Virus record (IMG/VR): IMGVR_UViG_3300029305_004606
Coordinates: 96,001-160,000 of that record
Length of the DNA stretch: 64,000 bases
Reading direction: 5' to 3' (one strand)
DNA from: a virus
Lineage: Duplodnaviria; Caudoviricetes
The notes under the pieces were generated by a model that saw nothing but the letters and a program-made list of their open reading frames with translations, made no database searches and was not told the origin of the DNA. Below, piece after piece: positions 8,108 through 59,528 of this stretch. The first letter of the stretch is position 1; the number at the start of each line of letters is the position of its first letter. A program made the translations under genes and the position numbers.

Positions 8108-8118
8108 AACCGTATGAA

Positions 8119-8131
8119 ATTATATATTATA
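8119..8131 (+). promoter_or_regulatory. Early-type phage promoter (ATTATATATTATA)
   Basis: Exact 13-mer repeated upstream of several + strand genes; resembles the TATATTAC-type early motif of phiKZ-related phages. Confidence 0.7.
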
Positions 8132-8163
8132 TAATAAATAAGAGTAAAGGAGATTGAACTATT

Positions 8164-9123
8164 ATGGATCAGAAGATGCAAAATTTTTCAGAAAACAGGG
8201 AAACAATAGTCCCTATTACTTTTGTGAACGGTAACATTAGAGCAACTGAAGAGTTGAATTCTATGTTTACTCTTCCTTACGATTTGGCAGTTCTTGGTAG
8301 AGCAACAACTTTGGATGGTTGCGAGAATATTGCAAAATCTGGACAGGTTTCAGAGCCTGTGTTTAAGTCATTTGCTATGGATGTAGTTAGAATGAATAAG
8401 AACAACTTTGAGGATGCAATTAAAGTTTATTTGCTTATGAACTGTAGAGAATTTATTTATTCATTCGTATGTCATATGATGAATAATATCTGCGATGTTC
8501 AGGCAAATCCTAATTACAGACCGGCTGATGACGATGATTATGATGATGGATATTATTCTTCACCTTATTATATCAATGACAGAGATATTGATAAGTTGGT
8601 TCTTGATCATCTTAATACTTTTGTATTTGCTACATCTACAAATGGTGATATGACAAAAATATATTATTACCAGTTGATGAACAGTTTGTATTTCCAGGTT
8701 GTAGCATTTGTAGATGGTCTTATTAGAGCTACTTCTTTCAGAAGATATACAAGAAATAACAGAGTGTTCAATAAACTGGTAGAAAAGGTATATGGACCTA
8801 ACAATGGTATTGATCCTAAGACTTTAACAGCAGAATTCAGATATACATTTTCTACTTCTATTATGAGAGAGATGGCTGAAAAGGAACTTCCTGTATTATA
8901 TCAGGGATTACACAAAATCTTTATGACAGCAGCATCTATGGCTTGTATTGATGCTATTCCTAATGGTAGAGAAGAAATCTTCGGAGCAGCTCAGCCTCAG
9001 ATTCCTGATCATCAACATGAATGTATGTGTGGTGGAAATTGTCATCATGAAGAGCAGCCTAGTCCGGCAGCTTCAGCAATTCCTCCTACTCCTAAAGGAT
9101 TTGGAAGAGGAAAACGTAAATAA
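8164..9123 (+). CDS. Hypothetical early protein with C-terminal His/Cys cluster
   Basis: 319-aa ORF, AAGGAG RBS, HQHECMCGGNCHH near the C-terminus. Confidence 0.8.
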   Translation: MDQKMQNFSENRETIVPITFVNGNIRATEELNSMFTLPYDLAVLGRATTLDGCENIAKSGQVSEPVFKSFAMDVVRMNKNNFEDAIKVYLLMNCREFIYSFVCHMMNNICDVQANPNYRPADDDDYDDGYYSSPYYINDRDIDKLVLDHLNTFVFATSTNGDMTKIYYYQLMNSLYFQVVAFVDGLIRATSFRRYTRNNRVFNKLVEKVYGPNNGIDPKTLTAEFRYTFSTSIMREMAEKELPVLYQGLHKIFMTAASMACIDAIPNGREEIFGAAQPQIPDHQHECMCGGNCHHEEQPSPAASAIPPTPKGFGRGKRK

Positions 9124-9143
9124 ATTAAAAGAGGTGAATGTCA

Positions 9144-9329
9144 ATGAATATTATGGAGAACAATCCTAACAATGTACTTAAGCCTAATCTTAAGACATTA
9201 TTAGCCGAGCGTCAGGAACTTGATGCAGAGAGAAAAGCTAGTAAGAGTTTCTTTGAAAGAATGAAAATCTCTAGCAAAATAGCTGCAGTTGATAAGCAGA
9301 TAGCTAGTATTGATCTGAAGACCAAGTAG
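9144..9329 (+). CDS. Small hypothetical coiled-coil protein
   Basis: ORF 9138-9329; GAGGTG spacing favours ATG 9144. Confidence 0.65.
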   Translation: MNIMENNPNNVLKPNLKTLLAERQELDAERKASKSFFERMKISSKIAAVDKQIASIDLKTK

Positions 9330-16093: not shown

Positions 16094-16109
16094 AATTCTA
16101 TAAGCCGAG

Positions 16110-16123
16110 AACATATATGTAAT
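16110..16123 (+). promoter_or_regulatory. Late-type phage promoter (AACA-TATATG-TAAT)
   Basis: Perfect AACA-N6-TAAT. Confidence 0.65.
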
Positions 16124-16266
16124 GCTATCTGGAACAAGGGCGTGCGGACAGTTGGCAGGTGCGATTATTCTTACATATACTAAGTTCTTGACTTTGGTGT
16201 GAACTATGTAACCCCAAGAAGACCCCTAGAGCTTCGGCGGCTCTAGGGGTCTTCGTTTCTTTTTTT
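16121..16266 (+). ncRNA. Candidate small RNA (or near-leaderless 26-aa peptide, 16122-16202)
   Basis: Promoter, GC-elevated body with TTACAT..AGTTC/GAACT-ATGTAA hairpin, then a strong terminator. Confidence 0.45.
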
Positions 16267-16270
16267 ATTT
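16218..16270. terminator. Terminator between convergent units
   Basis: GAAGACCCCTAGAGC/GCTCTAGGGGTCTTC 15-bp stem followed by a T-tract. Confidence 0.85.
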
Positions 16271-16722
16271 TAAGATAAAGTGGATGAATTGAAAGCTGAT
16301 ACTTGATCAACTGCAATTGATTTTACTTTAGAATTGATAAACTTTAATAGATCTTCATCATTAGAAATATTATATATCATTTTAATATAGAAAATATATA
16401 ATTCCGAGATTTCAAGAGCTATAACTTTAGTAATATCTCTTACCATAATCTCACAATCTTCTTCTTTAATATATTCAATCTTTCTAACTATAAACTTCAT
16501 AGAAATATATCTTTGAATATATCTCTCAAAATATTCATCAATATATTGATTGATAGATTCAATCGATAGAACACTGAAAAGATTATATTTTTCGTTTTTG
16601 ATCTTCATTTCTTCCAATTTATTTTTTGGCTCTAAGTAATTCTTAGTAATATAAATTGTACTCCATGTACAGAAAGACAATACTAATATAATTACTATTA
16701 ATAAAAATATATAATTCATCAT
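16270..16722 (-). CDS. Membrane-anchored hypothetical protein
   Basis: N-terminal hydrophobic helix YIFLLIVIILVLSFCTWSTIYI; overlaps upstream gene. Confidence 0.75.
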   Translation of the reverse strand: MMNYIFLLIVIILVLSFCTWSTIYITKNYLEPKNKLEEMKIKNEKYNLFSVLSIESINQYIDEYFERYIQRYISMKFIVRKIEYIKEEDCEIMVRDITKVIALEISELYIFYIKMIYNISNDEDLLKFINSKVKSIAVDQVSAFNSSTLS

Positions 16723-57541: not shown

Positions 57542-57916
57542 ATGGATATGAGTAAATATTATGAATATAGGCAAAAAATTAGAGCACTGTATGATCAGGA
57601 GCCGTTTAGTAGTAATGATCTTGGAAGTAAAATTCTTGAGATTAAAGATAAAAATAGGTGTATTGTATCTATGTCTTTAGATCTAAATGCTTATTACATC
57701 CAGGCTCAGTTTGAAGATGGAACACCGTTTGAGAAAGTTAATAAAATTTGCGATTCAATTCTTAAAAGAATTGGATATTATTTATCAGATAATATCGATT
57801 CTATTCCTGATCTTGAACCGGAAGATAAAGATGCGATTAGATCGATGTTAAATAATCCTGCAGCTACATATTGTGATCATATTGTGATTGGAAACATGGT
57901 TAAAATTAACCTGTAA
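57542..57916 (+). CDS. Hypothetical protein
   Basis: 124-aa ORF, AGGAG RBS. Confidence 0.75.
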   Translation: MDMSKYYEYRQKIRALYDQEPFSSNDLGSKILEIKDKNRCIVSMSLDLNAYYIQAQFEDGTPFEKVNKICDSILKRIGYYLSDNIDSIPDLEPEDKDAIRSMLNNPAATYCDHIVIGNMVKINL

Positions 57917-57929
57917 CAAACATAAATAT

Positions 57930-58038
57930 AATGAGTCGGATTGGACACCCGATCTCATAGCTTTTGGATAAAGCTAAAGTTGACATCACCTCAAAGCAGA
58001 ACCCCTAAGGCATTGCTGCCTTAGGGGTTTTGTATTTT
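57930..58038 (+). ncRNA. Candidate small RNA with exposed anti-Shine-Dalgarno-like ATCACCTC
   Basis: Perfect AACA-TAAATA-TAAT promoter (57919-57932); two hairpins; unpaired linker; terminator. Confidence 0.55.
57997..58038. terminator. Terminator between convergent units
   Basis: CAGAACCCCTAAGGC/GCCTTAGGGGTTTTG stem. Confidence 0.85.
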
Positions 58039-58040
58039 GA

Positions 58041-59528
58041 TTATTTCATTCCATCTAATACTTTCTTAATATAAGCAGAATCTACTTTATCAAGCTGCAA
58101 AGTATTAACAGTTTCTAAGAAACCATACATAACCTTAGAAGCTTCTACAATAAGATCTGTATCAAGAGTACCGGATTCGGTAATATAATTTTCTCTTACA
58201 ACTTCATCTTTGATGATACTTCTAGAAAGGTTTCTAGACATCTTTTCGAATACTGTCATATTACGATGCTCTTTAATACTGTCGATATGTCTCTTATAGA
58301 TTCTAACTGATTCTTCAGCAATCTTAGCTTTAGTTTCATCTTTACCGTCAAGATCTTCAATAGTCTTAACATTGTTAGAAATCTTGTTAAGAAGTTCATC
58401 AATCTTTTTCTTATCTTCAGCATTATTTCTGATGAAAGTTTCCTCAGCATCTGCGATTCTAGAACGAATGATTTCTACTGCTTTCTGAACATCTTCTTCT
58501 TTGTTAAGTTCATCGAAGATTTTACCATCATTTCCAGTATGTCCATCAATAGTAGTATCCTGATCTACACCATCATCATCTAACGGTTCACCAAGTTCAT
58601 CATCAACATGATCCTCTACATCTTCTTTAGAAGGCTCGTCATCAGAATCATCGTCTTCATCATCCTCGTCATCGTCATCCTTGTCATCATCTTTAGGATC
58701 ATCTTCAAAGGTAGTATCTTTCAAAGGATCTTCATCTTCTTTCTGCTTTTCATCTTCTTCAGATTTTTCTTCACCAGCAGGTTCTTCAGGAGCTTCTCCT
58801 TCTTCCTTTTTATCTTCACCTTCTTCAGGTTTATCTTCAGATTTAGGAAGCTGAAGTTCTACTTCTTCCTTGCTTTCATTGTCTGCGTCTTCTTCAGCAG
58901 CTTTCTTTTCTTCTCTCTTTTCTGCAGCCTCTTCAGATTTTCTCTCTTCCTCTTCTTTAGCAGCAGTAAAGATCTGACTCATAAAGTCATGTACATCTTT
59001 CTTTCTTGCAGTTTTAAGAAACTCTGCAGCAGCTGCAATAGCAGCATCTTTCTTCTTTGAACCTGAATTTTCTTTTTCATCAGAATCTTCAATAGGTTCT
59101 TCTGCTTCGATTTCTTTTACATCTGCTTCAGCAGCATCTTCTACAATCTGAGTAATTCTAGAAAGCAAATATGTTTTGTTTCCTACTTTACTAAGAATAG
59201 CAGATGCACCACCATTTTCTTTGATCCAGTTTTCTACCATACTCTCTGCAAGAATGATACCATCATCTGTGAGGGTAGAAGCTTCAAGAGCTCCGATATA
59301 GATAGCTTTGATAACTGTACCAAAAGCTTCATTTCTAGCTGCTTCCATAAGAGCTGCTCTAGAAGAAGCCTTACGATTTCTCATATCCATAATAGTATGA
59401 TACTTATTGTTGAACTGTTCTCTCACAGCAACTTTCTCGTTAACAGCATTGATTTCTCTCTGTGCTAACTGAGAACGAGACTCAGCGAGATTCTTATATG
59501 ATTCTACAACTTCGTTTTCACGTCTCAT
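58041..59528 (-). CDS. Highly acidic probable head scaffold / prohead core protein
   Basis: Central D/E-rich disordered region flanked by helical parts; many hydrophobic-x-E-S/A sites; perfect late promoter at 59555-59568 (-). Confidence 0.55.
   Translation of the reverse strand: MRRENEVVESYKNLAESRSQLAQREINAVNEKVAVREQFNNKYHTIMDMRNRKASSRAALMEAARNEAFGTVIKAIYIGALEASTLTDDGIILAESMVENWIKENGGASAILSKVGNKTYLLSRITQIVEDAAEADVKEIEAEEPIEDSDEKENSGSKKKDAAIAAAAEFLKTARKKDVHDFMSQIFTAAKEEEERKSEEAAEKREEKKAAEEDADNESKEEVELQLPKSEDKPEEGEDKKEEGEAPEEPAGEEKSEEDEKQKEDEDPLKDTTFEDDPKDDDKDDDDEDDEDDDSDDEPSKEDVEDHVDDELGEPLDDDGVDQDTTIDGHTGNDGKIFDELNKEEDVQKAVEIIRSRIADAEETFIRNNAEDKKKIDELLNKISNNVKTIEDLDGKDETKAKIAEESVRIYKRHIDSIKEHRNMTVFEKMSRNLSRSIIKDEVVRENYITESGTLDTDLIVEASKVMYGFLETVNTLQLDKVDSAYIKKVLDGMK

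Follow-up and report, generated by a model that had tools for sequence, protein, structure and literature searches.

Introduction

Short gaps between convergent phage genes may hold no more than a terminator, or they may encode a regulatory RNA, and the locus described here raises the question of which of the two applies. In the stretch of DNA that was analysed (64,000 nucleotides, hereafter the window, corresponding to positions 96001-160000 in a virus record that is 200,990 bp long and bears inverted terminal repeats), an open reading frame (ORF) of 124 amino acids (57542-57916, plus strand) and one of 495 amino acids (58041-59528, minus strand) converge on a gap of 124 nt (57917-58040), which is filled by an apparent promoter-to-terminator unit. 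No Pfam or PHROG family was found for either of these flanking ORFs. A first-pass annotation had proposed that the unit encodes a small RNA (sRNA) displaying an exact mimic of the anti-Shine-Dalgarno (anti-SD) tail of 16S rRNA, through which it would pair with GAGGUGA-type ribosome-binding sites (RBSs). It is thus necessary to ask whether the element is a real RNA and, if so, which sequences its exposed bases would recognise.

Here, we describe the anatomy of the element, its conservation and covariation in uncultured relatives, and its complementarity to the start region of a conserved 61-aa ORF in the same genome. The explanation that we prefer, and advance tentatively at a little below an even chance, is that the element with this anatomy is a late trans-acting antisense RNA that would silence the 61-aa ORF. 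Other explanations are weighed where the evidence that bears on them is presented.

An AR9-like jumbo phage and its promoters

The genome has a GC content of ~31% and encodes split multisubunit RNA polymerase (RNAP) genes, as seen from PHROG RNAP beta matches. The nearest cultured relatives of the RNAP beta protein, at ~30% identity, are those of Staphylococcus jumbo phages of the S6/Madawaska type, Bacillus phage Goe21 (AR9/PBS1 group) and Listeria phage LPJP1. Upstream of ORFs, the SD sequence AAAGGAGGT is enriched 15-25-fold, and AAGGAGG, the dominant SD of this phage, is present in 45-54 upstream regions. An early motif resembling that of AR9, ATATATTA, is enriched ~10-fold upstream of genes. 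In AR9 itself, the early consensus is AAATATATATTAT-N6-G and the late consensus is AACA-N6-TA/G, with the last base serving as the start site (PMC5312081). Together, the RNAP relatives, the SD enrichment and the AR9-like motifs point to an uncultured, distant AR9-like jumbo phage, with a host that would use SD sequences and probably belongs to the Bacillota. Both split RNAPs and AR9-like early promoter motifs are present, as the class of AR9-type late units requires.

Sites of the form AATTATATATTAT-N6-G, which match the AR9 early (virion RNAP) consensus, recur on the plus strand of the window at 8123, 9341, 23678, 23858, 29125 and 38262. Together with ~20 AACA-N6-TA sites in the genome that precede ORFs by 18-80 nt, these six sites provide a draft map of early and late promoters for the phage. 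At both genome ends, within the inverted terminal repeats (genome 1-430 and 200434-200990), a start region reading AAAGAGGTGATAGTATGAGTATAAAAGTT is present, and its near copy at ~198276 (genome 198262-198290) suggests a repeated terminal gene.

Anatomy of the element

The unit begins 3 nt past the stop codon of the 124-aa gene, on the plus strand. Its first feature is a putative late promoter, AACA-TAAATA-TA (57919-57930), which matches the AR9 late consensus and predicts transcription from A57930; the sequence AACATAAATATAAT at 57919-57932 is the sole exact copy in the window. Only one base from this predicted 5′ end lies hairpin 1 (57931-57958), formed by ATGAG-TCGG and CCGA-T-CTCAT, with a loop, AUUGGACAC, that contains a conserved GGAC. 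Hairpin 2 (57958/57959-57976) has the loop UGGAU and is variable and dispensable. The linker that follows, UUGACAUCACCUC (57980-57992), is the proposed seed and contains the anti-SD-like sequence AUCACCUC at 57985-57992. The unit ends with an intrinsic terminator (57996-58039), comprising a stem of 17 pairs including G-U (57996-58033) and a run of U. The first-pass annotation had identified the promoter, both hairpins and the terminator, and all four were found where it had placed them; its terminator stem of 15 bp is counted here as 17 pairs with G-U included.

The terminator is usable in both directions and hence also serves the convergent 495-aa gene. On the other side, no terminator separates the unit from the 124-aa gene, so that the element is also the 3′ UTR of that gene, and the RNA may have two sources, its own promoter and processing. 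Folding of the plus strand gives -47.7 kcal/mol, with a z score of -7.2 relative to shuffled sequences. In this minimum-energy fold the linker partly pairs with the 5′ end, and its mean unpaired probability is 0.61. Rfam covariance models gave no matches in the window at the gathering threshold and nothing relevant at E values up to 1, and scans of the window for tRNA and tmRNA genes found none.

Individual parts of the element are not exceptional when taken alone. The minimal late motif, AACA-N6-T[AG], is low in information, with 253 copies in the 201-kb genome (0.63 per kb per strand) and ~0.08 expected per 124 nt per strand. The sRNA promoter ranks only 47th in a position weight matrix built from 20 upstream-of-gene sites. 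The 8-mer ATCACCTC has three copies in the window versus 1.7 expected, which is not beyond chance on its own. It is the conservation and covariation in homologues, described below, that place the element above chance, though single items are not.

A further AACA-N6-TA match, TTTAACATCGATCTAATC, is found on the minus strand at window position 57849, antisense within the 124-aa ORF, and outscores the sRNA promoter in the matrix. It may represent an antisense late promoter or a chance occurrence.

Conservation and covariation in uncultured relatives

Metagenome assemblies contain 390 homologues of the 495-aa neighbour, and the contexts of 12 of these were compared together with six from JGI and IMG/VR. 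The element can be aligned in every relative with a protein identity of ~58% or more and a gap of 111-181 nt. The element-bearing set (L018-L023, L025-L027, L029 and the window) comprises 11 distinct sequences, the homologues all being from uncultured relatives. In all 11, the AACA and TA of the promoter are invariant, whereas the N6 spacer between them reads TAAATA, TAAATG, TACATG, TATTCA, TAACGA or TGAATA.

The same fold is found in every homologue. Sequence-only alignment with MAFFT followed by RNAalifold detected no structure for hairpin 1, and structure was tested on a covariance-model alignment of eight homologues instead. In this alignment, 96.9% of cells pair and both sides have changed in 11 of 28 pairs; none of 500 shuffles reached the observed covariation, and slid controls paired at 31-54%. 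The double-sided changes are distributed over hairpin 1 (three of nine pairs), hairpin 2 (four of six) and the terminator (4 of 13). The stem of hairpin 1, at 9-14 bp, occurs in six versions that differ in sequence yet all pair, and GGAC is present in the loop throughout; comparison of L026 with L027 adds two further compensatory pairs. Hairpin 2 extends to ~55 nt in L026 and L027 and is absent in L029.

Coding potential was considered on both strands and rejected. The 9-codon ORF on the plus strand is not conserved, being lost in L025 (stop at codon 3), L026 and L029 (no ATG), and neither is a 26-codon ORF on the minus strand that starts in GAGGTGATG. The earlier description of the locus as a non-coding unit running from promoter to terminator is therefore borne out.

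Four further relatives (L003, L004, L005 and L030) keep the synteny, but their gap is only ~40-60 nt and holds the terminator hairpin alone; AACA-N6-TA is missing from all four. This joint presence and absence of element and promoter motif, together with the conservation, indicates a real, selected, non-coding accessory module, and we regard it as very likely that the element is a genuine conserved structured RNA element.

Among cultured phages, no relative of the locus was found in DNA and protein searches of INPHARED, and the 495-aa neighbour has no homologue there. In IMG/VR, an 18-mer from the linker matched only an unrelated coding family, a gapped pattern running from promoter to seed had no matches, and protein scans with the 124-aa, 463-aa and 495-aa queries found either no match or L003 alone, a relative without the RNA. 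Nothing was found among GTDB genome contigs.

A conserved element in this position could in principle act purely in cis, its hairpins and terminator serving only to stabilise and terminate two convergent mRNAs, with no RNA acting in trans. The close spacing to the 124-aa stop codon with no intervening terminator is in line with this, as are the bidirectional use of the terminator and its retention in relatives where the rest is missing. However, an invariant AACA-N6-TA with a variable spacer would be needless in a 3′ UTR, a conserved single-stranded motif of 13-14 nt has no role in termination, and the whole module is gained and lost along with the promoter motif. We consider the purely cis-acting role unlikely, and judge it probable that the element gives rise to an independent transcript.

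The gap itself may accommodate more than one type of RNA. In two other loci (L006:567-790 and L007:4245-4480, on the minus strand of the loci), the same gap holds a different RNA-like insert of ~170-190 nt with a closing stem of 12-13 bp, C/A-rich open regions and a shared UAUUGUAAUAAAA ahead of the terminator; the L006 insert starts with AACA-AGATCA-TA. The convergent gap appears to act as a slot that different late RNAs can occupy.

The layout of the sRNA unit recurs in the window at 16094-16269, in another gap between convergent genes. Here, AACATATATGTA lies 16 nt past the stop codon, and ~110 nt of structured sequence with GGAC and UUGAC is followed by a strong terminator, making this a second candidate late sRNA. 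The sRNA covariance model (R1) has weak matches at 16166-16262 (plus strand) and 16210-16330 (minus strand) of the window, with E values of 0.004-0.0003, and likewise matches terminator-only gaps elsewhere.

The conserved linker and its proposed target

Among the homologues, the linker follows the pattern UUGACA-N2-3-(C)CCU(C), with TTGACA and CCT invariant in all of them. Its mean unpaired probability ranges from 0.59 to 0.91, and it is fully open in most homologues. The sequence ATCACCTC is present in the linker at 57985-57992, as the first-pass annotation had stated; the linker is conserved and mostly open among homologues, and partly paired in the window's own fold. A conserved, unpaired, C-containing linker able to cover an RBS is supported. 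The exact 8-mer AUCACCUC, by comparison, is restricted to the closest relatives. It is replaced by AUCGCCUC in L021, ACACACCUC in L025, AUUCACCUC in L026 and L027 and AUUCACCUUC in L029, so that only CACCU(C) is kept. The better-conserved part of the linker is UUGACA. Reading TTGACA as a sigma-A -35 box was rejected, as no -10 element is present 16-18 nt further on.

Duplex energies between the linker and translation start regions were calculated for 195 genes, with the ORF at 9144 scored from both of its candidate start codons to give 196 regions. The mean is -8.4 kcal/mol, and 7 of the 196 regions, representing six genes, reach -15 kcal/mol or lower. The best of all is the site GAGGUGAAUGUCAA at 9131-9144 (plus strand), which takes in an SD, a 6-nt spacer and the initial A of the start codon for the 61-aa ORF at 9144-9329. 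The window's 13-nt seed pairs there at -20.3 kcal/mol, with a one-base bulge, being one U shorter than the 14-nt linker of the divergent homologues L026 and L027, UUGACAUUCACCUC. Of the latter, GAGGUGAAUGUCAA is the exact complement, a match between the relatives' seed and this genome's site. GAGGUGAAUGUCAA occurs once in the 201-kb genome versus 0.0019 expected under a first-order Markov model, and the expectation summed over the five seed variants tested is ~0.01.

Genome-wide scans with the individual seeds gave graded results. With the window's own linker, 9131-9144 scores -20.5 kcal/mol, a value that two other non-self sites, both within coding regions, also reach. For the L026 seed, 9131-9144 comes first (-25.5 versus -18.1 kcal/mol for the next), as it does for the L029 seed (-23.2 versus -19.6 kcal/mol); it ranks only 6th for the L021 seed and 4th for the L025 seed. 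In L021, where an A is changed to G, pairing at the target would be preserved as G-U. The L025 seed, with CA for UU, has two mismatches at 9131-9144 unless the target has co-varied; an L025-type target co-varying with its seed would read GAGGUGUGUGUCAA or stay within G-U tolerance.

The 61-aa ORF is conserved, with six protein clusters at 66-97% identity. Its product is helical, and one homologue is called from an upstream in-frame ATG as MSMNIM, consistent with the retention of ATG-TCN-ATG. No function was found for the protein in Pfam, PHROGs or the ESM Atlas. The ORF starts 20 nt after gene 8164-9123 and lies in the same operon. Ahead of this operon is an early-type motif, AAATTATATATTAT (8117-8142, at ~8123, plus strand), which matches the AR9 early consensus and would be the early promoter of the operon; the base at its expected start is A, not G. 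An 18-mer from the target had no matches in IMG/VR. A target closer to the RNA was also sought and rejected, as no conserved local site was present within 4.5 kb of it in eight loci.

The first-pass annotation had listed the RBS of 9144 together with those of 17593, 23363 and 30928 as pairing partners. The first is indeed the best predicted target, but the other three offer only 7-nt SD matches at -12 to -13 kcal/mol. We lean slightly towards antisense action for the RNA, and see the ORF at 9144 as a possible target, at somewhat less than even confidence. Outside the window, the linker forms duplexes of -16 to -19.4 kcal/mol with three further start regions, at genome positions 39904, 30399 and 198624, which are possible additional targets; one of them reads GAGGUAUGUCAAAUUAUG, which places AUGUCAA directly after its SD.

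A model for late silencing of the 61-aa ORF

Late transcription, pairing in vivo and repression are what we infer from these features, in the following order. The non-virion RNAP would transcribe an RNA of ~107 nt late in infection, from A57930 to the intrinsic terminator. Hairpin 1, close to the 5′ end, probably shields the RNA from exonucleases that attack 5′ ends, as 5′ stem-loops do in Bacillota. The open linker UUGACAUCACCUC would then act as an antisense seed and pair with GAGGUGAAUGUCAA at 9131-9144, which lies 49 kb away in the early-type operon. With the SD, the spacer and the A of the AUG all covered by this pairing, translation of the 61-aa ORF would be shut off late in infection.

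The same seed might, alternatively, be directed mainly at host mRNAs, with phage targets secondary. Host mRNAs are known targets of some phage sRNAs (PMC12197685), the anatomy of the element is as in trans-acting sRNAs, and SD-like sequence of the type covered by the seed is frequent in hosts that use SDs. Against this stands the exact 14-nt match to a phage RBS, which is already a sufficient target, and we find a primary role on host messages improbable.

Hairpin loops and a possible protein partner

The antisense model leaves the conserved GGAC loop of hairpin 1 unexplained, and there is therefore room for a protein partner. In its strongest form, this would make the element a decoy, with GGAC/GGA loops and the linker titrating a CsrA-like GGA-binding protein or a factor of the 16S 3′ minor domain; such a factor would recognise a hairpin with a GGAA-type loop followed by a AUCACCUCC tail. 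The arrangement of a hairpin followed by a AUCACCUC-like tail loosely recalls helix 45 and the 16S tail. GGAC is invariant in the loop of hairpin 1, and GGA is also present in the loop of hairpin 2 in the close group. However, of the two GGA loops in the window only the GGAC of hairpin 1 is constant across homologues, as against the many such loops in known CsrA sponges. Moreover, hairpin 2 is dispensable to the point of being absent in L029, the identity of the tail is not conserved, and no Rfam family is matched. A protein-binding or decoy RNA is thus a doubtful account of the element, with a small share of our confidence.

Resemblance to the anti-SD tail of 16S rRNA

The resemblance that first drew attention to the locus would, if general, make the RNA a broad regulator, showing the 16S 3′ tail so as to titrate many GAGGUGA-type RBSs of phage or host and damp translation widely. 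The 8-nt identity with the universal 16S tail is real in the window, GAGGTG is present in 11 upstream regions, and the C-containing unpaired linker is conserved. What is conserved in that linker is nevertheless not the 8-mer, which is also not enriched: homologues carry variants of it that share only CACCU(C), and the best-kept UUGACA is absent from the 16S tail. An exact mimic of that tail is hence not the conserved feature of the RNA. In addition, the linker lacks a CCUCC core and fits the dominant SD, AAGGAGG, poorly, and strong duplexes are confined to the six genes mentioned above. On these grounds, a general SD-blocking role is not supported, and we hold the general action on GAGGUGA-type RBSs that had been suggested to be very unlikely. 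According to the antisense model, the anti-SD resemblance would be a by-product of covering an SD.

Least plausible of all, and to our minds very improbable, is a decoy of the 16S rRNA 3′ minor domain, in which a helix-45-like hairpin with a GGAC loop is followed by an (A)UCACCU(C) tail. Such a decoy could sequester a ribosome-maturation protein, or a host factor or defence nuclease directed at the 3′ end of 16S rRNA, and would thereby protect or re-tune ribosomes late in infection, besides or instead of antisense control.

Relation to known regulatory systems

Antisense RNAs that mask an RBS have precedents in phages, namely the c4 RNA of P1 and P7, which acts on icd-ant, and the sar RNA of P22, which acts on ant. 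The late antisense RNA proposed here is similar in that a short structured phage RNA would prevent translation of a phage gene by pairing through exposed bases with its SD and start region. It differs in that the target of c4 is the transcript of its own operon and sar is antisense in cis, whereas the present RNA is encoded 49 kb from its proposed target and has a late promoter of jumbo-phage type. No sequence or Rfam relationship of the element to c4 or sar was found.

The proposed silencing of early messages by a later function has a protein counterpart in phage T4, in which RegA, a repressor, and RegB, a nuclease that cuts at GGAG, shut off early mRNAs. There, too, control is exerted at SD and start regions, but the effector proposed here is an RNA. 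In bacteria, the C-rich-seed sRNAs RsaE/RoxS of Bacillota also present an unpaired C-containing motif between hairpins to a G-rich SD, with a 5′ hairpin and an intrinsic terminator. RsaE/RoxS have several CCCC motifs and constitute an Rfam family, whereas the phage element has a single CACCUC, which a UUGACA extension would convert to gene-specific pairing.

Among jumbo phages, sRNAs have been detected by ONT-cappable-seq in phiKZ and 201phi2-1, with targets that are not known (PMC11512511). These are likewise small non-coding units in phages with multisubunit RNAPs, some of them intergenic and some conserved among relatives (PMC11512511). They are, however, experimentally observed transcripts of Pseudomonas phages, mostly derived from 5′ UTRs, while the present candidate is known from sequence and has a specific predicted target. 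In AR9, seven late promoters drive antisense transcripts, and the study that reports them describes no stand-alone trans-acting sRNA (PMC5312081). The promoter logic of AACA-N6-TA is shared, but the AR9 RNAs are cis-antisense to genes (PMC5312081). On these comparisons, the element is classed as a putative phage-encoded trans-acting antisense RNA, outside any Rfam family, with a late-on-early logic.

Implications

To a promoter class and a structure supported by covariation, the candidate adds a conserved seed and the prediction of one specific target. Its practical limit is that both phage and host are uncultured. If the model is correct, this would be the first function for a jumbo-phage sRNA, with a late RNA switching off an early gene, and AR9-like phages would supplement the temporal programme of their two polymerases with RNA-based, post-transcriptional control.
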